From Polynucleobacter yangtzensis (GTDB lineage Bacteria > Pseudomonadota > Gammaproteobacteria > Burkholderiales > Burkholderiaceae), in the NCBI RefSeq assembly GCF_001595965.1, contig NZ_LOJI01000001.1, forward strand, positions 246,178-278,177: DNA of 32,000 nucleotides, given 5' to 3'. A program made the position numbers and the translations under genes. Below, in pieces: positions 2,521 to 25,055 of this stretch. Positions within the stretch are counted from its first letter, which is position 1, and every line of letters starts with the position of its first letter. Under the pieces are notes generated by a model. It saw only the letters and a program-made list of their open reading frames with translations. It was not told the origin of the DNA and ran no database searches.

Positions 2521-4686
<2,166 letters not shown>

Positions 4687-7421: not shown

Positions 7422-7495
7422 AAAACCACCCGAAGGTGGTTTTGGTGTTCTTGGTGGCCGGGGGCGGAATCGAACCGGGGCCGAGATGCTTAGAC
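7422..7495 (-). repeat. R2: terminator hairpin + tRNA-Phe 3'-end fragment
   Basis: Hairpin at 7422-7443 and TGGTGGCCGGGGGCGGAATCGAACC at 7452-7476, with 1 mismatch and 1 deletion relative to the consensus, followed by GGGGCCGAGATGCTTAGAC. Confidence 0.85.
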
Positions 7496-8014
7496 AAGTT
7501 GTTTTGTTAACAACACCAGCTTAAGGCCACTGATCTTAGGATTTCCAACGCCAGCATCTGCTGGATAGTCTGAGCTTACTTGCGTGGGCTCGTAGCCCCT
7601 ACGCAAATAAAAATCAAATAACTCTTTACGCTCTGAAATAACAAATAAATTAACCTCTGAAGACTCATATTGATTTTCGGCATACTCTTCTGCGAGCTGA
7701 AGTATTTCTTTGCCCAAGCCAAGATTTTGATATGACGGCTTAACTGTCAGCATGGCGATATAGCTTGCCCCAGCCTCTTCGTTGATATTCACGCAGGCAA
7801 CAATCTCACCTTTGTTTAGGCCGAGCAATATTGTCGACCCATCCCCATCAAGCAGATCAGCAAGTTGCTGTGTGTTGATTCTGTCGCCCTCTATAAGCCC
7901 TGACTCATGAGTCCAGCCGGTCTCAGGGCCGTTGGGACGATACGAGTTATTTATTAAGCCCACCAGCTCTGGTACGTCCCTTGCTGTGGCAATACGATAT
8001 TCGTCAATATTCAT
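7490..8014 (-). CDS. GNAT family N-acetyltransferase
   Basis: Carries the acetyl-CoA motif KPSYQNLGLGKEIL. I call the start at Met45 of the track ORF (MNIDEYRIATARDV). The upstream 44 codons of ORF 7490-8146 merely translate the tRNA fragment and terminator repeat. Confidence 0.8.
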   Translation of the reverse strand: MNIDEYRIATARDVPELVGLINNSYRPNGPETGWTHESGLIEGDRINTQQLADLLDGDGSTILLGLNKGEIVACVNINEEAGASYIAMLTVKPSYQNLGLGKEILQLAEEYAENQYESSEVNLFVISERKELFDFYLRRGYEPTQVSSDYPADAGVGNPKISGLKLVLLTKQLV

Positions 8015-8034
8015 GACGATAGTTTCACCCAAAT

Positions 8035-8115
8035 ATGAAAAAACCACCCGAAGGTGGTTTTGGTGTTTCTTGGTGGCCCGGGGCGGAATCGAACCACCGA
8101 CACAAGGATTTTCAA
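8035..8115 (-). repeat. R3: 81-bp perfect direct repeat of the tRNA-Phe 3' half (anticodon loop to CCA) plus terminator
   Basis: Identical base for base to 24944-25024. It covers tRNA positions ~32-76, the 9-nt spacer and the UUCG hairpin. The sequence past 8115 diverges and forms no cloverleaf. Confidence 0.9.
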
Positions 8116-8175
8116 GCATCCTCCGATTGACCGCTTCGCCAAGCATTTCAAGTGGTTATGCCAACCGAGACAGAT

Positions 8176-8238
8176 TGTGCGCAAAAAATGCTGAGCGTTT
8201 TCAGAAACTTACCGTAGCGTGTTGAAACTGTGCGCAAA
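8176..8238 (+). repeat. Two direct copies of TGTGCGCAAA (8176-8185, 8229-8238)
   Basis: A 10-mer repeated 53 bp apart, just inside the island end next to R3. This position fits arm-type recombinase binding sites, which is inference. Confidence 0.4.
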
Positions 8239-8335
8239 CCCAAATACCAATATGTAGCGGTGACTGACGTAAGGAGTACCAATAAATTAACTACACAAAT
8301 GCGCTAAATCTCGGTTCATGTATCAGTCAAAAATT

Positions 8336-8453
8336 GGTTCGACTCCTGCTCATGCCACCCAATTTTGGTTCGAATCCTAGTAGTGGTACCGAACAAAGTT
8401 TGGTTCTCAGCCATGCCACCAAACCTTTAGTTCGAATCCTGTGCCTGCAGCCA
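8336..8453 (+). repeat. Tandem cluster of four tRNA 3'-end-like fragments (T-loop + T-stem 3' strand + acceptor 3' strand + CCA-like end)
   Basis: The four units are GGTTCGACTCCTGCTCATGCCACCCA (8336-8361), GGTTCGAATCCTAGTAGTGGTACC (8367-8390), GGTTCTCAGCCATGCCACCA (8402-8421) and GTTCGAATCCTGTGCCTGCAGCCA (8430-8453). None has a matching 5' half. The units alternate A-B-A'-B', like a diverged ~64-nt duplication. Confidence 0.7.
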
Positions 8454-8469
8454 ACCATTGGTACTTGGA

Positions 8470-8488
8470 ATGTCGTTTTAAACGACAT
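8470..8488. repeat. Perfect 19-bp palindrome ATGTCGTTT-T-AAACGACAT
   Basis: Same family as 7379, 21842 and the others. It lies 17 nt after the tRNA-like cluster and upstream of the DUF3800 gene. Confidence 0.9.
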
Positions 8489-8564
8489 ACAAATACCTTA
8501 CTTTAATCTACTAAATTCTGTAAACTTTTCTGATTAATTAAAATCTTTTAAATCCATTTCTACT

Positions 8565-9284
8565 TTGTCAAATACAACCACTTCGCCACCTACGCATTAC
8601 AAAATATTTTGCGATGAAAGTTGTCATCTCCTAAGTGACAGCTCAAACATAATGGTATTTGGAGCGATTAAATGTGACGCAGATCAAGTGGCAAACGCCA
8701 TAAAGCAAATAAAAAGCTTGCGTGTCGTTCATAATTATCACACTGAAATTAAGTGGACTAAATTACATACCAAACATTTGCCGTTTTATAAAGCTCTCAT
8801 TAACTTATTTTTTGATTGTCATTTTTTAAAATTTAAAGCGACGGTTGTTCTTGATAAAAATCTACTAGATCACGAGAAATATAACAATGGATCTCACGCT
8901 GATTTTTATTACAAAATGGCGTACTACTCTTTAAGAGATTTTTTATCTACGCCAAATACTACATATCAAATTTATTTTGACTATGTAGATACACAAGGAA
9001 ACAATAAGGCCTCGCGTTTAAGAGATATTTTAATTAACAGGATGCATGGAAATCTTGAACTTTCAACTCAAGTCATAAGATCCCACGAATCGAACTTAAT
9101 TCAACTTTGCGATCTCTTGATTGGGGCGATTGGCTATGTCAATAGAAATGATCTAGCTCATTTAAGCAGTATAAAAAATCAAATTATTGAACACTTAAAA
9201 GTAAAAAGCCATAGAAGCTTAAATATTGCTTCGGCACCTTGGGAAGAAAAATTTAATCTTTTCCTTTTTAGCCCAAGAAAATAA
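8565..9284 (+). CDS. DUF3800-like protein
   Basis: N-terminal YKIFCDESCH (the DES motif) and C-terminal SNLIQLCDLLIGAIGY (the QxxD motif), as I recall for DUF3800. The gene is very AT-rich, and the TTG start with no clear RBS leaves the start uncertain. Confidence 0.6.
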   Translation: MSNTTTSPPTHYKIFCDESCHLLSDSSNIMVFGAIKCDADQVANAIKQIKSLRVVHNYHTEIKWTKLHTKHLPFYKALINLFFDCHFLKFKATVVLDKNLLDHEKYNNGSHADFYYKMAYYSLRDFLSTPNTTYQIYFDYVDTQGNNKASRLRDILINRMHGNLELSTQVIRSHESNLIQLCDLLIGAIGYVNRNDLAHLSSIKNQIIEHLKVKSHRSLNIASAPWEEKFNLFLFSPRK

Positions 9285-9285
9285 G

Positions 9286-9798
9286 ATGCTTCCTTCTATT
9301 ATCAATACAAGTGGCATTGATGCTACAAAGCTTTTTGATCATCTTTATAGATTTTTTCATCAAGATTTTGTCTGCAATAGGACATACCTGAATCAAACAA
9401 TTTACATAGATCCACAATCTAAACAACTAGAGGATGGCAAAGAAAAAACTTTTTGGCACCTCACGACAAAAAAGGATCAGTTAACCAAGATAAGGCTTTA
9501 CGATCCAAGACGTGCAGAGCGCCTCAATTGGGTAAAGGTAATCATTGAAAACCATTCGGCTCCATTAGTTTCATATTTTTATCATCAAGAAAATAATGCT
9601 AAAAAAGATATAAGACTATATCTCTGGGCAGAAAACCATGATTTTGTAGTCATCCTTCAAAAGCTCGGTAGATCCAGTTCAATTCTTGTAACAAGCTTTT
9701 ATATAGATCATCCCCATAAAAAGGTTGATTACAAAAAAAGACTTCATGCTTATCGCAATGGAACCAATCCAGCACTTATGAATGTTGATTGGTTTTAA
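9286..9798 (+). CDS. Hypothetical protein, translationally coupled partner of the DUF3800 gene
   Basis: The ATG lies 1 nt after the upstream stop (MLPSIINTSG...). The C-terminal ...DFVVILQKLGRSSSILVTSFYIDHP is reminiscent of small RelE/barnase-type toxin folds, a weak impression only. Confidence 0.55.
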   Translation: MLPSIINTSGIDATKLFDHLYRFFHQDFVCNRTYLNQTIYIDPQSKQLEDGKEKTFWHLTTKKDQLTKIRLYDPRRAERLNWVKVIIENHSAPLVSYFYHQENNAKKDIRLYLWAENHDFVVILQKLGRSSSILVTSFYIDHPHKKVDYKKRLHAYRNGTNPALMNVDWF

Positions 9799-9801
9799 AA
9801 A

Positions 9802-9824
9802 AAATCCGCCATGGAGGCGGATTT
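9802..9824 (+). terminator. Intrinsic terminator after the two-gene module
   Basis: AAATCCGCC-atgg-AGGCGGATTT, starting 4 nt after the stop codon. Confidence 0.7.
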
Positions 9825-10107
9825 AAGAATTTGGTCGCCTATTATGGACCGGGCGATACGGTCACCTCTTTCTACCAATTGGTAGGTGAGCGAAGTGATT
9901 TTGCAACATACAGCTCAAGATTACAAATCTAAATACCCTAATACAGTGAAAATACAACATCTATAATGCTGTAACTCATTGATTAAAATGAATATTTTTA
10001 ACTGCATCAAATTATTTACCCACTCGATGTATGGGTAAATAAACAACTCCCACACCCAAATAAATGAATTCCTGAAACTAAAATTGCTAATAACGGCAAA
10101 TTTTAGA

Positions 10108-10446
10108 ATGAAATCATTACCCAAAGAACTTAAAACTACTTCCGTTGATTCCAAGCTACCCACACAGGCTAGATTTGAGCAAAGCTTGCGAGATTCTATT
10201 GAAGGTCAGGAATCCATATTAAGCATTGGCTATTTGCAGTATGTTGCTCAATATCAATCTCATAACCCCTTTAGTCATTCACGCATCACCTACAAAGTAA
10301 TCCATAGAAATACAGGATGTTCTGTGCTCATTAAATTAACTAGGGTTTTAAATACTGGCTCAGGGCTACGCAAACGCCAGAGAATCAATAGAACTGCAAA
10401 GCGAATAGCAGTGAAATGGATGCCAAGACTCAAGACGAGGTATTGA
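10108..10446 (+). CDS. Hypothetical protein (doubtful)
   Basis: ORF-track entry 10084-10446 with an internal ATG at 10108. The C-terminus is basic, there is no RBS and I recognised no motif. Confidence 0.25.
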   Translation: MKSLPKELKTTSVDSKLPTQARFEQSLRDSIEGQESILSIGYLQYVAQYQSHNPFSHSRITYKVIHRNTGCSVLIKLTRVLNTGSGLRKRQRINRTAKRIAVKWMPRLKTRY

Positions 10447-10526
10447 TTTACGCATTACCTGTCAGCCAGATAATCTGTCAAACTCTAAAAAGAGTAATCA
10501 CCAGATCAAACCGCGATTTTGAATCA

Positions 10527-10922
10527 TTAGAGCGGTTTGGGCGTTTCGCCCCTTAAATAGTCCCTAAACATTTTTAACTCTTGCGGCGATTTAGTAGTAA
10601 TAGTGGGCCCTGTTGTAGCGGGTGACTTAGGTTGTGAAGGTGCAATCGTTTTAGCTTGAGCAACTGGCTTAGCTACTTTTTGCTGTACAGCTTGTGCTGG
10701 CCTAGTTACTGGAGCAGGCATAGCTCTTTGAAGCAAACTCACCGCCTTGGGTTTAGGTATCTTTGGGGCTTTGGGGGTCTTGGCTTTGGGCTTACTGGCT
10801 TGAGCCGCCTTCTGTTTTGCCTGTGTACTAGCTTGTTGGCTAATGGCACTCCAGGTGTTATTCATAATGATTCGCAATAATCCTAGCTGATCTTCTGCAT
10901 TGGCAATCTCATACATTCTCAT
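10527..10922 (-). CDS. Hypothetical protein with a Lys/Pro/Ala-rich low-complexity region
   Basis: Strong AGGAGA RBS. A ~30-aa N-terminal segment is followed by QAKQKAAQASKPKAKTPKAPKIPKPKA...KVAKPVAQAK repeats. Confidence 0.65.
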   Translation of the reverse strand: MRMYEIANAEDQLGLLRIIMNNTWSAISQQASTQAKQKAAQASKPKAKTPKAPKIPKPKAVSLLQRAMPAPVTRPAQAVQQKVAKPVAQAKTIAPSQPKSPATTGPTITTKSPQELKMFRDYLRGETPKPL

Positions 10923-10977
10923 GGCTTTCTCCTTTCCTTATATTTATCGGATCGTCTAGGATTTAGACGATCCCCAC

Positions 10978-11127
10978 CTAAACCTCTGTTGGCAAATGCA
11001 CCACATTGTTTGCACCATACTGCCCTTGCAATAAGAAATAAGCGGCTTGACTGTTATCGGCAACTACTTGAGTTTGCACTACCCAGCCCTGCGGCTGTAT
11101 ACGTACGTAGGCTACATATGTTTTCAT
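10978..11127 (-). CDS. Small hypothetical protein (49 aa)
   Basis: My own translation gives MKTYVAYVRIQPQGWVVQTQVVADNSQAAYFLLQGQYGANNVVHLPTEV. A 10-bp-stem hairpin, GGATCGTCTA-ggatt-TAGACGATCC (10949-10973), follows it. Confidence 0.35.
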   Translation of the reverse strand: MKTYVAYVRIQPQGWVVQTQVVADNSQAAYFLLQGQYGANNVVHLPTEV

Positions 11128-11183
11128 TTAATCCATCCATAGAAAAAGAGCTAACACTAGGATTAGCATTAGCTCGTGGTTAC

Positions 11184-11621
11184 TCACTTACCAAACCCAG
11201 CACGTACAGCGCCACTGGCTTGCTCTATCTGGGTATCTAACTCCCCCGCTTCTACAGCGCCTTTGATAATCTCTAAGGCTTTGATAAGCTCATCTGCAGT
11301 GGCAACTTCTACGGCTGTTTTGCCTTTTGCAAACTCAATCACGCGGCTTCCATAGCGAACGTTTAGGCAAACCTTGCCGTCACTAGACACAAACCACCAC
11401 TGACGTACACGCTTTTGATGCTCTACGGTTTTGCGAGAGCCGTCATAGTCTTTAACTGATTTAAATTTCTTAACAGTAAAAGTATTGCCTTCGCGTTGGG
11501 CCTTCGCAAGTTGGATCTGCTCCCATACTTTTGTAGAGAGCTTATTGCGTCGCTGCAAAATGGGTGGGATAGACGTTGGCTTTTTAGAGTTAACCATTTT
11601 CAAACTGTTTAATGTGCTCAT
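11184..11621 (-). CDS. Hypothetical island protein
   Basis: 145 aa with an AGGAGA RBS 7 nt upstream. It is transcribed divergently from 11767-12150. I recognised no catalytic motif. Confidence 0.6.
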   Translation of the reverse strand: MSTLNSLKMVNSKKPTSIPPILQRRNKLSTKVWEQIQLAKAQREGNTFTVKKFKSVKDYDGSRKTVEHQKRVRQWWFVSSDGKVCLNVRYGSRVIEFAKGKTAVEVATADELIKALEIIKGAVEAGELDTQIEQASGAVRAGFGK

Positions 11622-11675
11622 TTCATTTCTCCTTTGTAGTTAATGGGCACACTTAATTTATGGTCAGAGTTTTTG

Positions 11676-11687
11676 GTTGGACAACCT
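11676..11687 (-). promoter_or_regulatory. Shared promoter/operator motif AGGTTGTCCAAC (-35 region) upstream of 11184-11621
   Basis: Minus strand reads GGTTGTCCAAC-N..-ATAAAT, that is TTGTCC, a 17-nt spacer and ATAAAT, about 55 nt before the ATG. The same 12-mer recurs upstream of the integrase. Confidence 0.5.
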
Positions 11688-11766
11688 CTTTTTGCCAATA
11701 TCTGCCAGAACCAAAGGATTTAAGCCAGATCTGTTCTTCTTTTATTAGGTTTTGCTAAATACTTTT

Positions 11767-12150
11767 ATGAACTACAAGAAGAAACGATTAACTGAGGCAC
11801 AGTTTCAAATTAACAATCGTCAAAAGTACGATTCGAAAGTTACTAACAGCCTTCTAAAAGCTAATGGACTTAATCCGCAGACTTTTTCAACAATGCCTCT
11901 TGAATTAGTGCAAGCCCGCATCGTTGCAGTAGAACTACTCAAAAATTACTCACAATTTTTAACAAAACATCAAACTAAGGCACTCAATAAATTCAAAAGC
12001 AAAACCGCAGATAAAAAGAAATGCAATCAACTTAGCCCTACTTTGGCTTATCCGATACTCAATCTAGCAACCAAAATCAAAAGACAGGCTCATAAACAAG
12101 AACTGCAAGCAAGGCAAACTATCCAGGAACTAAGGTACAACCAACCTTAA
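11767..12150 (+). CDS. Hypothetical basic protein
   Basis: Track ORF 11752-12150. The first ATG is at 11767 (MNYKKKRLTEAQ...). The protein is Lys/Gln-rich. Confidence 0.5.
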   Translation: MNYKKKRLTEAQFQINNRQKYDSKVTNSLLKANGLNPQTFSTMPLELVQARIVAVELLKNYSQFLTKHQTKALNKFKSKTADKKKCNQLSPTLAYPILNLATKIKRQAHKQELQARQTIQELRYNQP

Positions 12151-12486
12151 CAAACAGGTACAAACGCGGGTTGTAATACGTCGGCTAATGAGCCCGCACT
12201 TGGCATAACTGCTCTAAAGGTTATGCAATACAAGTAGGCCGCAAGATTCCTAGATTTTCTAGGTTTGAAGTTTTAATACATCTGTCTTCAATAAATCTTT
12301 TTAGAGTCGTGTTGCTGAGGAACTCATCGTACCAATCTACACGTAGCGGCGGCTTTAGTACTTTCATAGTGCTATAGCCGTCGTTTGACTAAAGAATCTA
12401 TCAACCAATCAGCAATCAAAAGAAAGAAGATATGTGTGAGCGGAAGCGAAACACAGGACGAATGCAGTTCGTCCAATAAGGCTTGA

Positions 12487-12846
12487 TTAGATATTTAAAT
12501 TTTGTTCAAGTTGAGTATAAAAATCTGGCATTTCTTCTTTAGTAATTTCCCAACCAGAGCAGTTATTTCTGACTGAATCCCACAACCCCCAACCACCAAA
12601 AGCAACTACTGCTTGTCCAACCAGACCCATTACAGAGTCAATGATTTCCTGAGCCGTTGCTGTTGAGCCATCTTCATACGCACAGAGAACTGCAATGGGA
12701 ACCCCTTCATTGATAGCCATTGACTTTCCAAGATATCCTTTTGAGTCTTGTGACCGAATTCGCTCATCTAAAGCTACTGAGAAATTTTTTAATTCAAGCT
12801 GAATGGGGAAATTTTCAAATTCAAATATGGCGGCAACAGTTTTCAT
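12487..12846 (-). CDS. Hypothetical protein
   Basis: 119 aa, acidic and AT-rich, with no RBS and no recognisable motif. A hairpin, GGACGAA-tgcag-TTCGTCC, lies downstream at 12455-12473. Confidence 0.5.
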   Translation of the reverse strand: MKTVAAIFEFENFPIQLELKNFSVALDERIRSQDSKGYLGKSMAINEGVPIAVLCAYEDGSTATAQEIIDSVMGLVGQAVVAFGGWGLWDSVRNNCSGWEITKEEMPDFYTQLEQNLNI

Positions 12847-12859
12847 TTAAATTTTTATG

Positions 12860-12880
12860 AAATGTAATTGAATTGCATTT
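12860..12880. repeat. Imperfect palindrome AAATGTAATTGAATTGCATTT containing the AAATGTAAT half-site
   Basis: One of four AAATGTAAT/ATTACATTT occurrences in the 390-bp intergenic region upstream of the short recombinase. Confidence 0.7.
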
Positions 12881-12992
12881 TACCTGACTGGGTATAGACG
12901 CAAAATCACCACCCTGAATCTATAAGTACTTCATATAAATTTTTCGCAGCTCTATTTTTAAAGGGCACAGGACCCATTCGGGTATCAAATTA

Positions 12993-13064
12993 TTCGTTTA
13001 AGCGGTGATCTAGCTCACCCGCATACATGGGTAGCTGAGGGCTAAATATATATGCTTAAACGAA
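12993..13064. repeat. Long imperfect hairpin closed by an 11-bp perfect inverted repeat TTCGTTTAAGC / GCTTAAACGAA
   Basis: The arms lie at 12993-13003 and 13054-13064. There is inner pairing between AGCTCACCC and GGGTAGCT. Confidence 0.6.
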
Positions 13065-13091
13065 GGATTTAGCTGTGGCATTTAAGCCACG

Positions 13092-13123
13092 AAATGTAAT
13101 AGAAGTATGAAACTATTACATTT
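13092..13123. repeat. Inverted repeat AAATGTAATAG-N10-CTATTACATTT
   Basis: Perfect 11-bp arms. Confidence 0.8.
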
Positions 13124-13215
13124 AGAGCTAAGTCATTGAAATTGAAAAGATCTTTGTTTTGCCATTTTCGGTTGCTCAAACCAAACATAAGAAAACATAC
13201 TGTAGCTGCTTATTT

Positions 13216-13224
13216 ATTACATTT
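13216..13224. repeat. Half-site ATTACATTT, 12 nt upstream of the recombinase ATG
   Basis: It is the inverted partner of AAATGTAAT at 12860-12868, and the outer pair spans 365 bp. Confidence 0.6.
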
Positions 13225-13236
13225 TGGGAGCTACAT

Positions 13237-13803
13237 ATGTCACAAGCAAAAACACTAAACACAACAGAACTACGCAGAGTTCTTGATCACATCGCTACAC
13301 GCAAGCATTCTGCCCGCAATCGCTGCGCCTTACTTTTAACCCATTACGCAGGAATGCGAGTGGGGGAAGTTGCAGCTCTACGTATTTGCGACGTTTTAAA
13401 CGACAGCGGAACCATTAAAGATGAAATCCGCCTAAGGCCAGAACAAACTAAGGGCAAATACGCTAGAACTGTATATATCAATGCCCGTATGCAAAAAGAA
13501 ATTGCTCAGTACGTTAAATGGATACGAGTTACCGATACCAATAAGCCTTTGTTCTATACCCAAAAACGAGCTGGCTTCTCAGCCAATACGCTTACACAGT
13601 ACTTTCACTTTCTATATAGACGTGCTGGACTTGAAGGTTGCAGCTCACACTCAGGCAGAAGATCATTCTTAACTTCCTTGGCAAACAAGGGCACAGCTAT
13701 ACATATATTGAAGTCCCTAGCGGGCCATCGCAACATTAGTACTACCGCTGGGTATCTATACTCCAGCCCAGACCAGATGAAAGCGGCAGTGGAATTAGTC
13801 TAA
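13237..13803 (+). CDS. Short tyrosine recombinase (catalytic domain only), FimB/FimE-like
   Basis: 188 aa from the ATG with a GGGAG RBS. Motifs are HSARNRCALLLTHYAGMRVGEVAALRICDV (Arg I), HSGRRSF (H-x-x-R) and GHRNISTTAGYLY (His/Tyr). Both size and N-terminal motif layout resemble E. coli FimB/FimE. Confidence 0.8.
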   Translation: MSQAKTLNTTELRRVLDHIATRKHSARNRCALLLTHYAGMRVGEVAALRICDVLNDSGTIKDEIRLRPEQTKGKYARTVYINARMQKEIAQYVKWIRVTDTNKPLFYTQKRAGFSANTLTQYFHFLYRRAGLEGCSSHSGRRSFLTSLANKGTAIHILKSLAGHRNISTTAGYLYSSPDQMKAAVELV

Positions 13804-14574
13804 TAAATCTTCAGCAGGCTCAAAGTAGCCTGCATCTGGAAACCTTCCAACAGTTGCATTGGCTATCAACTTTTTCGTAGTGTCTAGAACATAGTCAAGA
13901 CGATCTAAAAGATTCTTCATTTCATCTGGAGTTACTTTTTCATCAGGCTTTAGGTGCCCCAATAAGCCATATTTTTGCGCTAGCTTATATGCAACAAAAC
14001 CTTGCTTTTGTGATTCTGACTGATATTCAAGATAGATTTTTAAATCGCGATTGATTCGATCGAACCCAAATTTCAGATTGTCTTTAAAAAGTCTTGTAGG
14101 GGCGGTACTTTCATCCCATCGATTGTATTTCTTTAGATTTTGATACTCTTCTTGAGCTCGCAAAATCTTATCGAATTGTTCTTTTAACTTATCGAGCGAC
14201 AAATTAAGCGGAATCTCCAATACCAGAGTTGATGGCTTAAGTTCCTTATTCGATCGTTTGATTTTGTAATCAAGTGAAACGGGCTTAATTGTTCTATACG
14301 GAACTTTTTCTTTAAAAATCCTGTGCCCTCTAATCTTCCACCATTCTTTAAAGTTGAGTTGGCTCAAGTCCCCGAACCTTCTATAGGTATGAGCCATAGC
14401 CACATTTCTAAATCTTCTGGTTGACTGTATTTCAGCGTACCAATGGGAGGCCTTCAGCACATTAAACCAAGCTTCATACATTGACCCCTCAGCTTTAGAG
14501 GCGGCAACCTCGACATCAAACCCCCATACATCGTTCTCGACGGGGAAACCTTTGTAGAAATTTAAATAGTCCAT
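13795..14574 (-). CDS. Hypothetical protein
   Basis: 259 aa. It overlaps the recombinase 3' end convergently by 9 nt. No motif recognised. Confidence 0.55.
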   Translation of the reverse strand: MDYLNFYKGFPVENDVWGFDVEVAASKAEGSMYEAWFNVLKASHWYAEIQSTRRFRNVAMAHTYRRFGDLSQLNFKEWWKIRGHRIFKEKVPYRTIKPVSLDYKIKRSNKELKPSTLVLEIPLNLSLDKLKEQFDKILRAQEEYQNLKKYNRWDESTAPTRLFKDNLKFGFDRINRDLKIYLEYQSESQKQGFVAYKLAQKYGLLGHLKPDEKVTPDEMKNLLDRLDYVLDTTKKLIANATVGRFPDAGYFEPAEDLLD

Positions 14575-14710
14575 TTATTTGTTCGGAAAAGTTGATAGTT
14601 CAGGTTTTTCGAATTTTCAGACGCTAAAACGCTCTCTAGAATTTTTTACAAGTAACGCAATCCTCTTAAAAACTTTATCAACCTGCGTTACGAAAAAGAA
14701 AGGTAACAAC

Positions 14711-15520
14711 ATGGAAATTCTAGCAAACGAAGCGGTAGAAGTAAAAGTGTCATCAGCTACGCTAGTAGCCAATGATGACAAAACATTTGGCAATGTCATG
14801 GCAAAAGTGTCAGCAACACCTATGCATTACTCAGTTGCCGACATCAAAGCAATGGAGGCGGCTCGTATTCACTGGGAGCAGGGGTCTTTGCGTAAAAGCA
14901 ATGAGGAGCTGTATCTAGTTTTACAAGATTGCAAAGCATTCTGCAAAGACTTGCCTTCTGCTGAAGCTAAGCAGCGTTCAGACTCATTAGCAAAGTTCTA
15001 CAAAGAGCGTGGCTGGCGTTACAACAAGGAAACACCCATTGAGACTCGCGTACTTCGCGCTGTCTTTGGGATGGAAAACCGTCGTCGCATCAGCAGCTAC
15101 TCCTTAGTGCTGCGCGAATCCAAAAAGCAGCGTGTTGGCGTTTCAAACTTAGCAGCTTGGATTGACGAGATGGGTGGCGTACAAGAAATTCGCCTTTCTC
15201 AAAGCAAGACTTTCATCTCGCCCGCTGAGAAGGCGCAGATCATGAAGGAACGTCTTGCTTCTCGTGGCTTCTTTATTGGCTTTGCTAAGTCCGAGCTGTT
15301 ATCGCATGTTGCTGACGCTGAGCACATGGGAGATGACTGCGTAATGCTGGGCAATCAACAACCAGATGGTTCATTTGGAGTTTACGCAGTACTTCGCTCT
15401 TCAGGTGTTTTGACAGCAGCTTATGTAGCCGCGTATGCAAAAGCTGAGGAAATCGAAGCTCAAGCGAAAAAAGAAATTGAGGCCGCTAACGATGCGGATG
15501 GAAAGCCTGTAGCGGCTTAA
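14711..15520 (+). CDS. Hypothetical protein with a coiled-coil C-terminus
   Basis: I call the start at Met45 of track ORF 14579 (MEILANEAVE...), preceded by AAAGG. This is the first gene of a four-gene same-strand cluster. Confidence 0.55.
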   Translation: MEILANEAVEVKVSSATLVANDDKTFGNVMAKVSATPMHYSVADIKAMEAARIHWEQGSLRKSNEELYLVLQDCKAFCKDLPSAEAKQRSDSLAKFYKERGWRYNKETPIETRVLRAVFGMENRRRISSYSLVLRESKKQRVGVSNLAAWIDEMGGVQEIRLSQSKTFISPAEKAQIMKERLASRGFFIGFAKSELLSHVADAEHMGDDCVMLGNQQPDGSFGVYAVLRSSGVLTAAYVAAYAKAEEIEAQAKKEIEAANDADGKPVAA

Positions 15521-15574
15521 CGAACCTGGTGGCAACTGCTACAGGTTGCCACCAACCATCACTGAGGAAAAGAC

Positions 15575-16246
15575 ATGTTTAATCAAGATGAAATTAGCCC
15601 TAAAACTCCCGATGACTTCATTTACAGCAATGAAGAATCACGCCTGCGCATTAAGGATGTTGTGACTGGTGCACAACCTTTGCCATATGCAGGCAAGAGC
15701 GGCGTATTGTTGTACGGCATTTATGGCACAGGTAAAACCACGCTTGCCAATATGCTTCCCAATGCAATTGAAAAAGGCACAACTGGACATGTTCAGGCAT
15801 TGCCTGAGTCATACATCGGCTGTCGCCAAGGCTTAAATGGCGTTCAGGTTTCGCAAACAATTGACAAGATTCTTTCGACGCAATCATTAAATGCCAGCGG
15901 CAAGCATTACATCATTTTGGATGAGGTGGATGTTCTGACTAAACAGGCACAAGAAAGTCTTAAGTCATCTCTGAATACAACACGTGGCGTATTTGTATTA
16001 ACCACCAATAGCGTATCTAAGCTAGATAAAGGCCTACTTGATCGCTGCATTTTAGTTGAGATGAATGCTGCTGATCCAGAAACCTATCTGCCAATAGCTC
16101 ACAAGGTTGTCGCAGCTCACGATGTCGTTTTAAACGACGAAGAGTTGATTCCGACTATCAAAGGGGCAAATGGATCGCTACGTAATGTCATTAACAACGT
16201 AGCTCGTCAAGCACGTCGAGCCAAATCTAATCAAGCTGCTAACTAA
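15575..16246 (+). CDS. AAA+ ATPase, clamp-loader (RFC/gp44/DnaX)-like
   Basis: Walker A GIYGTGKTT, Walker B YIILDEVD, sensor-1 VLTTN, and LLDRCILVEM in place of the SRC box. GAGGAAAA RBS. Confidence 0.75.
   Translation: MFNQDEISPKTPDDFIYSNEESRLRIKDVVTGAQPLPYAGKSGVLLYGIYGTGKTTLANMLPNAIEKGTTGHVQALPESYIGCRQGLNGVQVSQTIDKILSTQSLNASGKHYIILDEVDVLTKQAQESLKSSLNTTRGVFVLTTNSVSKLDKGLLDRCILVEMNAADPETYLPIAHKVVAAHDVVLNDEELIPTIKGANGSLRNVINNVARQARRAKSNQAAN
16121..16138. repeat. Palindrome-family copy GATGTCGTTTTAAACGAC inside the AAA+ CDS
   Basis: 7-bp arms GTCGTTT/AAACGAC, encoding HDVVLND. Confidence 0.7.
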
Positions 16247-16256
16247 GGAGAAAATC

Positions 16257-16553
16257 ATGCCAGCACCACACACACGCAAAAATGCTATTGCAGCAGAACA
16301 CACTGAAGTTACTAATGCTTATGCGATTCGCGTTACAAATGCAAAGTATCGCTCTGCAAATATTAATGGAGTGATCGAGCTTGCTAATGGCAAGAACTCT
16401 TTTCATGTTTTGGGTCAGGAACTTTGTGCTAAAGCAAAGCTGGCATGGTTTGACATGGAATTTAAAAAAGGGTTTCGCTCAATCAATTTGAGTGGCGCTC
16501 AAGTACAGATTTTGCCTAATTACACAGGCGAAGTTATTTCTAAACTTGCTTAA
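16257..16553 (+). CDS. Hypothetical protein
   Basis: 98 aa with a GGAGAAAA RBS, 10 nt after the AAA+ stop codon. Confidence 0.55.
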   Translation: MPAPHTRKNAIAAEHTEVTNAYAIRVTNAKYRSANINGVIELANGKNSFHVLGQELCAKAKLAWFDMEFKKGFRSINLSGAQVQILPNYTGEVISKLA

Positions 16554-16562
16554 GGGGCGACT

Positions 16563-17162
16563 ATGCGAGAGCTTATTGGAAATGAAAAAGAAGTTAAGTT
16601 TATTTTTTTTCGTCACGGCATTGATTACACACTACCCACGCCGAGCAATGTAAAGAAATTTTTAGGAACCAAATCTGCTGGTTTTTATAAAGCCGATGGT
16701 CATTATGCGGGAAATATTCATCAATTCAGTCATGTCTTAGATATAGTACATAGTGGTCTTAGCCTTAATTCAGTCATAGGTCATTGGCACCATGGACCGT
16801 GTTATATGAATACCGTATTACGTTTAGGTGGCGATGCCAAACGTAATGTTATGTTTGATCTAACACATAGTGAAGTTATTGTTGATCATTTAACTTTAAC
16901 TAAAGAATCTTTGGATCAACTTTGGGACATTTGCCAAGAAACATACAATACTGTTAACTCTATAAAGCAAGCAAAGAGCTTAATCAAACAAACTCAGGAT
17001 CTTGAAAAAACTGTAAACAAAAATAAGTTAATTGATCCATCATTGAAAGATTCTACGGAGCTACTTAAATCTGAGTGCTTCTTAAATTTTGCAAATCCAA
17101 CCTTAAAATTTTTAGAAGAAAAAATTAAGGGTTGGTACAAGTCTGCTAAATGGCTTGAATAG
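16563..17162 (+). CDS. Hypothetical protein (AT-rich)
   Basis: 199 aa with a His-rich patch IGHWHHGPC. It starts 9 nt after the preceding stop codon. Confidence 0.5.
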   Translation: MRELIGNEKEVKFIFFRHGIDYTLPTPSNVKKFLGTKSAGFYKADGHYAGNIHQFSHVLDIVHSGLSLNSVIGHWHHGPCYMNTVLRLGGDAKRNVMFDLTHSEVIVDHLTLTKESLDQLWDICQETYNTVNSIKQAKSLIKQTQDLEKTVNKNKLIDPSLKDSTELLKSECFLNFANPTLKFLEEKIKGWYKSAKWLE

Positions 17163-17178
17163 ATTGTTCTCTAGCACA

Positions 17179-18453
17179 TTAGGCCAATTGCTCAGCAGCC
17201 ATCGTAGGGGTTAGCTTGGAATAGTGTCGCTCAATCATGGCGGCGCTATTTCCCATTTGTTTGGCTAGAGTATGAATATCAGTCTTATTTTCAAGTAACT
17301 CCAAAGTGGCGTAAGTATGGCGCAATGAATACAAAGTACGCATCTGCCCATCCTGACTTAACCCCAAACCAGTATCTCTCATTAGTCTTTTAAACGCTCC
17401 GTCAATTCGTGCTGGCTGGTGTCCATCAGCAAATACAAAAATACGATTAGGCGCACGTGATTCAAATAATCTGTCAAATGAAATATCTTTAACGGCTAGC
17501 TGTCTACTATGTAATCGCTTGAGAGCATCTATAGCTTTATGTTTAGCAATTAACCAACGGCCACCTGTTTTGCCACTAACCCATATACGTAGATATTTTT
17601 TATCTCCTTGCGTATGCCATTCAATATTGTTCCAGCAGATATTCAATGCTTCGGTGCCATGCCGCATGCCTGTGTAAAACAAAATCTCCACATAGTCTCT
17701 TAATAATGGGCGGGTTAATTGCTCTATCTCCAATCTGCCATGATTAATCCAATCTTTCATGTACCCCAACAAATAATCCATCTCTTCTCGGCTAAATGCT
17801 GGGCGAGTTTTGCCTTTGTGCCCTCGTGTTGTTAGTTTTGGGATTGCCACCCTCTCACTAATCCAACCTTTATTAACTGCTGTCTGCTGTAACTTTGTCC
17901 AAGCACTGGCAAAGTTCATTAAGGTGCTGGACTTGGGTACTAGCCGCATCTGCCTATTACGCCAAATCTCAAACTCATGAATGTCTGTATAAGTTATTTC
18001 TTCTAGTCGCTTATCCTGAAAGTAAGGTAAAAAGTATTTCTCAATACACGTGATGTAACTTAGATAAACACTCTTTCCAATTCCTTCACCCAAATCACGC
18101 CGCATTTCATAAAGTGTGGCGTGCGCTATTTCTGCGAATGTGGGTGCTTTTTGCGCAAGCCCTAGACGCTGGCGAAATCTAGCTTCATCATATAAATCAC
18201 AGGCAACTCTGACAGCATGCTCAATTGATGCTTGCTTGGTTGAGACTCTGTCCCATGTGTTGTCATGTCGTTTAAAACGACATTGCCAGAGTGGGCTATT
18301 TGGCCTGCGAAAGAGAACTACGTCGCCATCACGCAGATAAAGCTCTGTGGGCTCTGCGTATTTGAGCTGACTTAGGGCTGTGGGTTGGAAATCTTGCTGG
18401 GGTGAGGAGATTACCTCTAGGTGGCTTTCGGGTACTTTAATTACCTTAGTCAC
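17179..18453 (-). CDS. Tyrosine-type site-specific integrase
   Basis: 424 aa. The C-terminal catalytic region has TGMRHGTEAL (Arg), LRHTYATLEL (H-x-x-R context) and IERHYSKL (Tyr). Confidence 0.9.
   Translation of the reverse strand: MTKVIKVPESHLEVISSPQQDFQPTALSQLKYAEPTELYLRDGDVVLFRRPNSPLWQCRFKRHDNTWDRVSTKQASIEHAVRVACDLYDEARFRQRLGLAQKAPTFAEIAHATLYEMRRDLGEGIGKSVYLSYITCIEKYFLPYFQDKRLEEITYTDIHEFEIWRNRQMRLVPKSSTLMNFASAWTKLQQTAVNKGWISERVAIPKLTTRGHKGKTRPAFSREEMDYLLGYMKDWINHGRLEIEQLTRPLLRDYVEILFYTGMRHGTEALNICWNNIEWHTQGDKKYLRIWVSGKTGGRWLIAKHKAIDALKRLHSRQLAVKDISFDRLFESRAPNRIFVFADGHQPARIDGAFKRLMRDTGLGLSQDGQMRTLYSLRHTYATLELLENKTDIHTLAKQMGNSAAMIERHYSKLTPTMAAEQLA
18265..18283. repeat. Perfect 19-bp palindrome ATGTCGTTT-A-AAACGACAT inside the integrase CDS
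   Basis: It is the exact reverse-orientation match of the intergenic copies and overlaps codons RFKRHD. Confidence 0.9.
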
Positions 18454-18504
18454 TTTGTGGGCAGATTACCGTTGTCATACCGCTATTTTATTTTCAGACT
18501 TAGA

Positions 18505-18516
18505 GTTGGACAACCT
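18505..18516 (-). promoter_or_regulatory. Shared promoter/operator motif AGGTTGTCCAAC upstream of the integrase
   Basis: Minus strand reads TTGTCC, a 17-nt spacer, then TAAAAT, about 55 nt before the integrase ATG. Confidence 0.5.
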
Positions 18517-18522
18517 GAACAA

Positions 18523-18547
18523 GAAACGTACTTTTAAAGGACGTTTC
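18523..18547. repeat. 25-bp near-palindrome GAAACGTACTTTTAAAGGACGTTTC
   Basis: Two arm mismatches, centred on TTTTAAA like the main family. It sits just upstream of the putative integrase promoter. Confidence 0.7.
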
Positions 18548-18711
18548 TATGGCTAAGCGCAGTCTTGATTTAACCTTTTATTCGACCTTTTCTGCATAAG
18601 TCTCTCTATAAACAGGCTTTAAGACTTTCACTAAATTATCAACATCCATTGCGGCTAAATTAGATCTGCCACCAATAATGTTAACTTCTTTAATGAAGTT
18701 TCTAAAACTAC

Positions 18712-20860: not shown

Positions 20861-20891
20861 ATTGATTTGTCGTTTAAAACGACAAATCAAT
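20861..20891. repeat. Perfect 31-bp palindrome ATTGATTTGTCGTTT-A-AAACGACAAATCAAT
   Basis: The longest family member, lying between the divergent chrB and TonB-like genes. Confidence 0.9.
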
Positions 20892-21841: not shown

Positions 21842-21904
21842 ATGTCGTTTTAAACGACATCGACTGACGCAAGGATGCTAACTTGATTTATCCTTTTAAA
21901 GGGA
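21842..21904 (+). repeat. Conserved ~63-nt module: 19-bp palindrome + GACTGACGCAAGGATG + second TTTTAAA palindrome
   Basis: About 85% identical by eye to 24275-24336. A partial third copy of the middle motif, GACTGACGTAAGGAG, lies at 8262-8276. Confidence 0.8.
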
Positions 21905-21964
21905 CGACTCATGATGGGGCTAACCGAGACTAATGGCGTCCTGTCTCTAGACGCTAACAAATAA

Positions 21965-22064
21965 AAAACCACCCGAAGGTGGTTTTGGTGTTTCTTGGTG
22001 GCCCGGGGCGGAATCGAACCAGGGCCGAGGATGTCTGACTCTATTTCTAGACTGTCATTTTAAA
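21965..22064 (-). repeat. R4: terminator hairpin + tRNA-Phe 3'-end fragment + shared arm ending in half-site TGTCATTTTAAA
   Basis: Hairpin at 21965-21986, TGGTGGCCCGGGGCGGAATCGAACC at 21996-22020, then AGGGCCGAGGATGTCTGACTCTATTTCTAGAC and the half-site at 22053-22064. Confidence 0.85.
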
Positions 22065-23099: not shown

Positions 23100-23116
23100 T
23101 GTCGTTTAAAACGACA
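23100..23116. repeat. 17-bp palindrome TGTCGTTT-A-AAACGACA
   Basis: It starts 2 nt after the MBL stop codon. Confidence 0.9.
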
Positions 23117-23163
23117 GCGACAGGCAAAGTCGAACTGCGTTAATGCTTTAGCTAACAAATGAG

Positions 23164-23258
23164 AAAACCACCCGAAGGTGGTTTTGGTATTTCTTGGTGG
23201 CCCGGGGCGGAATCGAACCAGGGCAGAGGATATCTAGACATAATAACTGTCGTTTAAA
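23164..23258 (-). repeat. R5: terminator hairpin + tRNA-Phe 3'-end fragment + arm ending in half-site TGTCGTTTAAA
   Basis: Hairpin at 23164-23185, core at 23195-23219, then GGGCAGAGGATATCTAGAC and the half-site at 23248-23258. Confidence 0.85.
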
Positions 23259-23335
23259 TAGATATTTTTAATATTAGAGGCTTATTATTGCTTTTTATAC
23301 AGCCTTGGATTCTAGAAAACAGTTATCCTAAGACC

Positions 23336-24274: not shown

Positions 24275-24336
24275 TGTCGTTTAAAACGACATCGACTGAC
24301 GCAGGGATGTCTAATTGATTTGTCCTTTTAAAGGAC
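24275..24336 (+). repeat. Conserved module: 17-bp palindrome + GACTGACGCAGGGATG + GTCCTTTTAAAGGAC palindrome
   Basis: Paralogous to 21842-21904. The second palindrome is perfect with 7-bp arms (24322-24336). Confidence 0.8.
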
Positions 24337-24375
24337 ACTTCTTAATCAGGCGCCCCATACGCAATTCTCCAAACA

Positions 24376-24450
24376 AAAACCACCCGAAGGTGGTTTAGGT
24401 GTTTCTTGGAGGCCCGGGGCGGAATCGGCCTGGGCCTAGGATGCTTAATC
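24376..24450 (-). repeat. R6: degenerate terminator hairpin + tRNA-Phe 3'-end fragment
   Basis: AAAACCACCCGAAGGTGGTTTA followed by TGGAGGCCCGGGGCGGAATCGGCC, with several substitutions, then TGGGCCTAGGATGCTTAATCC. Confidence 0.8.
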
Positions 24451-24463
24451 CTGCTTGCTACTA

Positions 24464-24859: not shown

Positions 24860-24948
24860 GTAGATCCCCTTTAAAAGTTAAGTTAACACTCTACTGGTTA
24901 TTTATGTTTGAAGTATGACGTGATTAAAACTAAGGGGCTAGGCATGAA

Positions 24949-24970
24949 AAAACCACCCGAAGGTGGTTTT
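24949..24970 (-). terminator. Intrinsic terminator of tRNA-Phe
   Basis: Minus strand reads AAAACCACC-UUCG-GGUGGUUUUUU: a UUCG tetraloop stem plus a U-run, 9 nt after the CCA end. Confidence 0.85.
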
Positions 24971-24979
24971 GGTGTTTCT

Positions 24980-25055
24980 TGGTGGCCCGGGGCGGAATCG
25001 AACCACCGACACAAGGATTTTCAATCCTCTGCTCTACCGACTGAGCTACCAGGCC
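24980..25055 (-). tRNA. tRNA-Phe (GAA), CCA encoded
   Basis: The reverse complement GGCCTGGTAGCTCAGTCGGTAGAGCAGAGGATTGAAAATCCTTGTGTCGGTGGTTCGATTCCGCCCCGGGCCACCA folds as a full cloverleaf. The acceptor stem has 7 bp including one G-U, the D-arm is GCTC/GAGC, the anticodon loop is TTGAAAA and the T-arm is GGTGG/CCGCC. It closely resembles E. coli tRNA-Phe. Confidence 0.95.

Follow-up and report, generated by a model that had tools for sequence, protein, structure and literature searches.

What is encoded by the AT-rich two-gene cassette at the left extremity of a mobile island of Polynucleobacter yangtzensis, and is it a piece of anti-phage cargo? The question arose from a stretch of 32,000 nucleotides (assembly GCF_001595965.1, contig NZ_LOJI01000001.1, positions 246,178 to 278,177 of the forward strand; hereafter the window), in which a first-pass annotation had noticed a DUF3800-like protein and a coupled 170-amino-acid partner. 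It had proposed a candidate defence or toxin module that was not a named system and whose second protein resembled small RNase-toxin folds. The family assignment and the candidate-defence logic of this proposal stood up to computational analysis, whereas the unnamed status and the toxin fold of gene 2 did not. The cassette adds a new and distant member to a candidate family that is known but uncharacterised, and sequence comparison relates it to the rlfA and rlfB genes of phage P1 (rapA in phage P7) and to the PADLOC entry PDC-M04. Coordinates are collected in Table 1.

Both proteins of the cassette matched PADLOC profiles over their full length. Gene 1 aligned to PDC-M04A (PDLC04353; E 2.5e-79) with residues 11-238 on profile positions 4-229 of 232, and gene 2 to PDC-M04B (PDLC04360; E 1.7e-65) with residues 1-170 on positions 1-166 of 166. 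Judged by these matches and by the adjacency of the genes, the pair is a member of the candidate system PDC-M04 of PADLOC-DB v2, which is defined by A and B in adjacent genes. PDC-M04 itself is a catalogue entry only, and literature searches found no publication, mechanism or phenotype for it. Homologues of gene 2 carry the name "RlfB protein" in NCBI and UniRef. Gene 1 and P1 RlfA share 40% identity (E 2e-53); for gene 2 and P1 RlfB the figure is 25% over 96 amino acids (E 4e-9). The P1 proteins match the same two PADLOC families with E-values of 1e-95 and 1.3e-51. The relationship of gene 2 to P1 emerged from pairwise and profile comparison; a tblastn search of 50,697 phage records with gene 2 gave no match at 1e-5. 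Because the identity is low, the cassette of the window was placed on a branch distant from P1. Its closest named relatives, from Burkholderia and Deefgea, show 54-57% identity.

The window and P1 share the two families, their order and their tight coupling, the rlfA stop of P1 overlapping its rlfB start, and in both the pair is low-GC accessory cargo. In contrast, the P1 pair adjoins the lytic replicon repL/oriL behind a C1 operator, whereas a chromosomal integrative island carries the pair of the window at one end, and a scan of ten island proteins turned up no replicon gene. The P1 designation rlf, for "replication-linked function", was given from position alone, the genes following repL/oriL. 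Literature searches for rlfA and rlfB returned only annotation-level statements on P1 and a prediction by Anantharaman et al. (2013), who grouped RlfA with the "NamA" RNase H-fold domain of predicted RNA-cleaving conflict-system toxins (PMC3710099). No function is assigned to the genes in the literature found, including the 2023 genome-wide CRISPR interference (CRISPRi) study of P1.

The cassette consists of two intact open reading frames (ORFs) on the plus strand, separated by the single g at 9285 between a TAA stop and an ATG and followed by a hairpin, as had been described from the sequence. TTG at 8565 is the sole canonical start codon of gene 1 between the in-frame stop at 8535 and the conserved YKIFCDESCH block. 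Public and automatic gene calls begin at M30, leading to a 210-amino-acid product that lacks the putatively catalytic D-E. The visibly high AT content was confirmed by a GC content of 33.3% compared to 43.0% for the window, the third lowest of 616 equal-sized windows, and GC at third codon positions (GC3) is 0.27-0.28 in the cassette genes. We set the left edge of the cassette at about 8490, since positions 8121-8489 are also present in related islands without rlfAB. A sigma-70 consensus scan of the leader gave no match; TAAAAT at 8539-8544 and the end of an RNA contig at 8552 are suggestive only as signs of a promoter. On the plus strand the closing hairpin is preceded by an A-run and followed by AAGAATTT, and it obtained a terminator score on the minus strand only. 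Because of the T-run on that strand, it was interpreted as a probable bidirectional terminator between convergent units. Contigs of a sediment metatranscriptome span 8552-8790 and 8897-9763, crossing the gene junction, and none covers 9833-10260, which places the end of coverage somewhere between 9763 and 9832. These contigs fit a single transcript ending at the hairpin, at a depth of about 5 with DNA carry-over possible.

Gene 1 matched the Pfam family DUF3800 (PF12686) with 48.6 bits (gathering cut-off 21; E 1.9e-12) over profile positions 2-148 of 149. An AlphaFold2 model based on an alignment of 29 sequences reached a predicted local distance difference test (pLDDT) score of 90.4 and a predicted template modelling (pTM) score of 0.89. 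When this model was compared with the PDB by Foldseek, every one of the 19 matches at E <= 1e-3 was an RNase HII from archaea or an RNase H2A from eukaryotes (among them 1eke and 3puf; E 8e-6 to 1e-3, template modelling (TM) score 0.45-0.5), with RNase HII 1eke as best match (E 8e-6, TM ~0.5). At the sequence level, in contrast, gene 1 shares only about 14-16% identity with these enzymes, and neither a relative of gene 1 nor an RNase H came out of a profile search of PDB sequences. The model thus predicts a DUF3800 protein with an RNase H2-like fold, in line with the RNase H-like arrangement anticipated earlier from the CDES and QLCD motifs. Residues C16-D17-E18-S19, D139 and Q180-L-C-D183 are invariant or nearly so in 25-29 homologues (48-61% identity), and D17-E18 and Q180...D183 are invariant in both homologue alignments; an N-terminal D-E and a C-terminal QxxD are the defining motifs of DUF3800 (PMC7736814). 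In the model, D17/E18 are at the end of strand 1, D139 is at the end of a central strand and a helix carries Q180/D183. Such an order of acidic residues resembles that of the RNase HII carboxylates, to which the individual residues may correspond. The DUF3800-specific Cys, Ser and Gln residues together with a patchy, mobile distribution argue that gene 1 is not a housekeeping RNase H.

Gene 2 matched no family in Pfam or NCBIfam. Its AlphaFold2 model (pLDDT 91, pTM 0.86) predicts an alpha/beta protein. Foldseek found nothing significant for it in the PDB, the best match being the HigB toxin 6af4 (E 0.059, TM 0.24/0.32), and a profile search of PDB sequences found no relative. The top structural matches included RelE/HigB, BrnT (TM 0.39 over 50 residues) and ParE toxins, all of them non-significant (E of at least 0.06, TM 0.2-0.39). 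With these values and no match in Pfam or among PDB sequences, a RelE/HigB/ParE-type toxin fold, and with it the small RNase-toxin fold suggested for the C-terminal part of gene 2, is not supported. One significant match, an uncharacterised phage protein, was obtained in the viral structure library BFVD. A profile search of 1.84 billion representative proteins yielded 901 RlfB relatives. As nearly all of the relatives are stand-alone proteins of 155-185 amino acids, they provide no informative domain fusions.

To see how constant the pair is, one genome per species was scanned, which gave 79 loci encoding RlfB. They are distributed over Gamma- and Betaproteobacteria, Campylobacterota, Desulfobacterota, Nitrospirota, Planctomycetota, Verrucomicrobiota, Bacteroidota and Chloroflexota, and include Streptomyces and an archaeal metagenome-assembled genome. 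A DUF3800 ORF lies directly upstream on the same strand in 74 of the 79, with a gap of -5 to +50 nucleotides, confirming that the coupled pair is conserved in order and adjacency. Among the five unpaired loci, only L067 is a genuine solo RlfB; the other four are fragments or lie at contig edges. The nearest gene upstream of the pair is HsdS in 18-19 of 66 cases and an N6 methylase in 8 of 66; downstream, HsdR accounts for 21 of 62 cases and HsdS for 6-7 of 62. From these counts about 45% of the homologous pairs are embedded in type I restriction-modification (R-M) operons, with the layout hsdM-hsdS-rlfA-rlfB-hsdR. The order is hsdM-rlfA-rlfB-hsdS-hsdR in H. influenzae and ArdA-hsdM-hsdS-deaminase-rlfA-rlfB-hsdR in Francisella. 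Elsewhere, hsdS-rlfA-rlfB stands beside two dynamin-like GTPases in a lake bacterium (L091/L092, 8775-11513), and the Burkholderia pair has a DUF4238 gene as neighbour, within a prophage or satellite-like region. The pair of the window is flanked by a tRNA-Phe fragment and island genes, with no hsdM, hsdS or hsdR. As a separate observation, the deaminase of the Francisella locus (L093, 5461-7269), encoded between hsdS and rlfA, has 602 amino acids and a cytidine/dCMP deaminase domain.

Viral copies are rare: RlfB was found on 18 of 2.9 million viral contigs, mostly P1-like. Of 5426 complete E. coli genomes, 121 contain the P1 version of rlfAB, nearly always on a plasmid. In the Bifidobacterium phage Bbif-1 (L097) an unannotated rlfB ORF follows rlfA at about 3700-4214 (RlfB profile E 6e-14). 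In many P1-like plasmids of RefSeq the DUF3800 gene is the only annotated gene within the rlfAB match, and rlfB sometimes bears the label "oxidoreductase". Gene callers cut rlfA at M30 with loss of the D-E and often overlook rlfB entirely. P2-like Mannheimia phages (PHL101, L096, 3980-4789) carry a solo, distant DUF3800 gene (26% identity) without an RlfB partner; it has its own promoter and terminator and is located between the cI region and tail gene D.

The location at the edge of an integrase-bearing island, pointed out by the first-pass annotation, was substantiated by comparison with the metagenome contig L081. The shared block 8040-18548 is 98.9% identical to this contig, although the flanking genes of L081 differ on both sides (mreBCD...DUF1003 on one side, UDG/CMD on the other), and was therefore regarded as a mobile island. 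Eighty related islands were recovered from lake metagenomes by means of the DUF6641 backbone gene. Thirty-five of them also have the tRNA-Phe fragment; the stretch from the backbone to this fragment measures 0.8 to 6.5 kb in these islands, and rlfAB is absent from all 35. Since the content of this slot differs across the 35 islands, the cassette (~8490-9830) represents exchangeable cargo in a variable slot. Ten alternative cargo proteins of the slot were scanned with Pfam and mostly belong to no family, the exceptions being a 765-amino-acid TPR protein and a phosphodiesterase and sulfatase pair. As none of the ten shows a recognisable defence domain, the slot is variable but is not callable as a defence hotspot. 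Metagenomes of freshwater and groundwater frequently contain the sequence, and a protein encoded nearby falls into one cluster, at >=90% identity, with a protein of a Polynucleobacter metagenome-assembled genome, which makes Polynucleobacter the probable host.

At roughly even odds (probability about 0.5), we regard RlfAB as an autonomous two-protein conflict module, an anti-phage system of the abortive-infection (Abi) type that travels as swappable cargo on the mobile island. In such a system RlfA would be a metal-dependent, RNase HII-like endonuclease whose carboxylate active site is formed by D17/E18, D139 and Q180/D183. RlfB would be produced in fixed proportion to RlfA by translational coupling, bind it and either hold it inactive or supply the trigger or the substrate recognition. 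Infection would then release or activate RlfA on RNA, RNA:DNA hybrids or DNA and stop phage replication at the cost of the cell. The evidence in favour comprises the PDC-M04 matches of both proteins, the predicted RNase HII/H2A fold, the invariant motifs, the pairing in 74 of 79 loci, the R-M operon neighbours, the prophage or satellite-like context in Burkholderia, the variable island slot and the low GC content. It is joined by the toxin prediction of 2013 and by two findings on P1: CRISPRi knock-down of rlfA or rlfB left plaquing unaffected, the genes being dispensable for lytic growth (PMC10695390), and in P1-like phage-plasmids they are located in a low-GC variable region (PMC9603915). 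As far as sequence and context can tell, the candidate-defence reading proposed at first pass is the best supported.

Several observations weigh against a role in defence. No sensor, DNA-binding or enzymatic domain was identifiable in RlfB by Pfam, NCBIfam and PDB structure and sequence searches. The island contains no other recognisable defence gene, PADLOC returning nothing for nine of ten proteins and a weak AAA match for the tenth, and the ten alternative cargo proteins of the slot scanned with Pfam likewise show no recognisable defence domain. Literature searches found neither an experimental test of the RlfAB/PDC-M04 family nor a paper mentioning "PDC-M04". PADLOC users describe PDC-x systems as unpublished and never verified, and two other PDC candidates, PDC-M63AB and PDC-S04, gave no defence when tested. 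Finally, a C1 repressor operator (Orlf/Op55) is annotated upstream of P1 rlfA, which suggests that the gene is repressed in lysogens; this would be unusual for a prophage-borne defence system.

The embedding in hsd operons raises the alternative that RlfAB is an R-M-dependent back-up, a guard comparable to PrrC that is latent as long as Hsd is intact and whose nuclease fires when a phage anti-restriction protein disables restriction. PrrC is an ABC-ATPase with a HEPN-like anticodon nuclease, and prrC is situated inside the EcoprrI hsd locus. By analogy, the RlfAB family may be seen in a similar position, as it is often inserted between hsdS and hsdR in the same operon: about 45% of the pairs are framed by hsdS (or hsdM) and hsdR in the same orientation, with rlfA in many cases overlapping the stop codon of hsdS. 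To our knowledge PrrC has no relation in sequence or fold to RlfA or RlfB. About half of the loci, phage P1 and the window, however, have no hsd genes adjacent to the pair, from which we conclude that it moves and persists on its own; under a guard function such copies would be orphaned or would use another partner. We therefore consider an R-M-dependent guard unlikely. Doubtful as well is an addiction module in the manner of toxin-antitoxin (TA) systems, with RlfA as nuclease toxin and RlfB as antidote or the reverse, whose main benefit would be to stabilise the island, P1 or the R-M operon and not to stop phages. A compact, translationally coupled gene pair on mobile elements is suggestive of this, as are the RelE/HigB/BrnT/ParE toxins among the weak top structural matches of RlfB and the fact that P1 is a plasmid prophage already relying on addiction (phd/doc). 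These structural matches are non-significant, however, and neither protein has a DNA-binding antitoxin domain typical of type II systems in Pfam or NCBIfam; moreover, RlfB is highly conserved (mean column identity 63-64%), and with 170-240 amino acids both proteins exceed the usual size of classical TA pairs. A TA function would not preclude an Abi function.

The name given to the P1 genes points to a third possibility, maintenance of the element itself, in which an RNase H-like activity would process RNA:DNA intermediates (primers or R-loops, for example) that arise while the element replicates or transfers. RNase HII-like folds do act on RNA:DNA hybrids, and the P1 pair, directly downstream of repL/oriL under a C1-controlled operator, is induced with the early lytic genes; the label "replication protein" of the RlfB family in PHROGs is annotation carried over from P1. 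Yet plaquing of P1 is not reduced by knock-down of either gene, most copies reside in chromosomal R-M operons with no replicon nearby, RlfB is scarce on viral contigs and the scan of ten island proteins revealed no RepL-like or other replication domain, all of which makes such a function very improbable.

Other DUF3800 proteins are associated with different partners, namely the reverse transcriptase (RT) and multicopy single-stranded DNA (msDNA) of type VII retrons or one of 11 structured RNA motifs; others occur as TPR fusions next to Cas12a2/a3 or, under the name Csx32, in Cas13 CASK operons. In RlfAB, by comparison, the constant partner is the RlfB protein. The literature found on the retron, Cas12a2/a3, Cas13-CASK and RNA-motif systems does not establish an activity for DUF3800. 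Unlike a type VII retron, the pair of the window has no RT domain in its neighbours and no retron RNA in Rfam, which found no DUF3800 RNA motif or other RNA near the pair, either at the gathering threshold in the whole window or with permissive settings at 7900-10600. A rather unlikely extension of the conflict-module reading is that RlfAB represents a novel type of immune module in which RlfB, as a protein of undescribed fold, gates the RNase H2-like effector in the way RT-msDNA or non-coding RNAs may do for other DUF3800 proteins, and that within hsd operons, where the module is most often met, it serves as a tripwire sensing phage inhibition of type I restriction.

Table 1. Coordinates of the cassette, the island and associated repeats in the window.
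Feature	Position	Strand	Remarks
AT-rich leader, probable promoter region	8490..8564	+	inferred; starts just past the 8471-8489 palindrome
Gene 1, rlfA-like	8565..9284	+	TTG start, 239 amino acids; DUF3800 protein, predicted RNase HII-like nuclease
Gene 2, rlfB-like	9286..9798	+	ATG start, 170-amino-acid partner; predicted alpha/beta fold
GC-rich hairpin	9802..9824		9 pairs, AAATCCGCC-ATGGA-GGCGGATTT; probable bidirectional terminator closing the cassette
Mobile island	8040..18548		10.5 kb, cassette at left extremity; 98.9% identical to metagenome contig L081
Island left end	8035..8120	-	terminator hairpin and 3' half of tRNA-Phe (fragment, not gene); repeat family D1
Short tyrosine recombinase, mid-island	13159..13803	+	Pfam Phage_integrase, E 2e-25
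Tyrosine recombinase (integrase), island right end	17179..18453	-	424 amino acids; weak Pfam Phage_integrase match on the identical L081/L082 gene
Palindrome, copies 1-5	8471-8489, 13392-13408, 16123-16141, 18266-18284, 20868-20886		
Palindrome, copies 6-10	21843-21861, 23100-23118, 23248-23266, 24275-24293, 24321-24339		

The surroundings of the cassette are rich in repeats. A terminator with a 3' fragment of tRNA-Phe of varying length occurs in seven copies (~5392, ~7475, 8035-8120, 21960-22045, 23159-23244, 24371-24456 and 24944-25029), the last of which overlaps the intact tRNA-Phe at 24980-25055 on the minus strand. These copies divide about 20 kb into cassettes, several of which contain a single gene, and suggest serial integrations at tRNA-Phe. 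The copy at the left end of the island, where neither ARAGORN nor Rfam called a tRNA, is 98% identical to the true tRNA-Phe copy at 24944-25029 and is included in the block shared with L081. A palindrome of 17-19 nucleotides (TGTCGTTTTAAACGACA and variants) is present in about ten copies, mostly at gene or cassette boundaries; related islands have it directly behind their DUF6641 gene as well. It may function as a REP-like (repetitive extragenic palindromic) terminator or as a recombination site.

Upstream of the leader, the plus strand carries at 8337-8460 a tandem series of three to four fragments similar to the T-arm, acceptor and CCA ends of other tRNAs, and again no tRNA was called there by ARAGORN or Rfam. 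This stretch was considered as a conserved RNA partner or leader of the pair and rejected: across 74 other loci, T-loop-like motifs show no enrichment next to rlfAB (0.17 vs 0.16 per kb), the RNA fold of 8300-8570 is not unusual (z -1.45), and the stretch is present in a few related islands without rlfAB. The fragments are probably relic attachment sites of the island end and not linked to the DUF3800 pair. Further into the island, at 15575-17162 on the plus strand, a 223-amino-acid AAA ATPase (weak PADLOC TRIP13/IetA match, E 1.7e-6 at best) is followed by proteins of 98 and 199 amino acids without family. To the left of the cassette, the listed 218-amino-acid ORF at 7490-8146 on the minus strand runs with its N-terminus through the tRNA-Phe fragment and terminator; the real start of this gene is probably the internal MNIDEY at about 8014.

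DUF3800 recurs as an unexplained component of immunity in type VII retrons, in Cas12a2/a3 and Cas13-CASK loci and with 11 orphan RNA motifs. The RlfAB family adds to it a protein with a confidently predicted fold and no solved relative, so that a structure or a function of RlfB would be new. By linking the cassette of the window with P1 rlfAB, PDC-M04 and the embedding in type I R-M operons, the analysis turns the pair into a concrete, testable candidate, the P1 genes of which can be assayed in E. coli.

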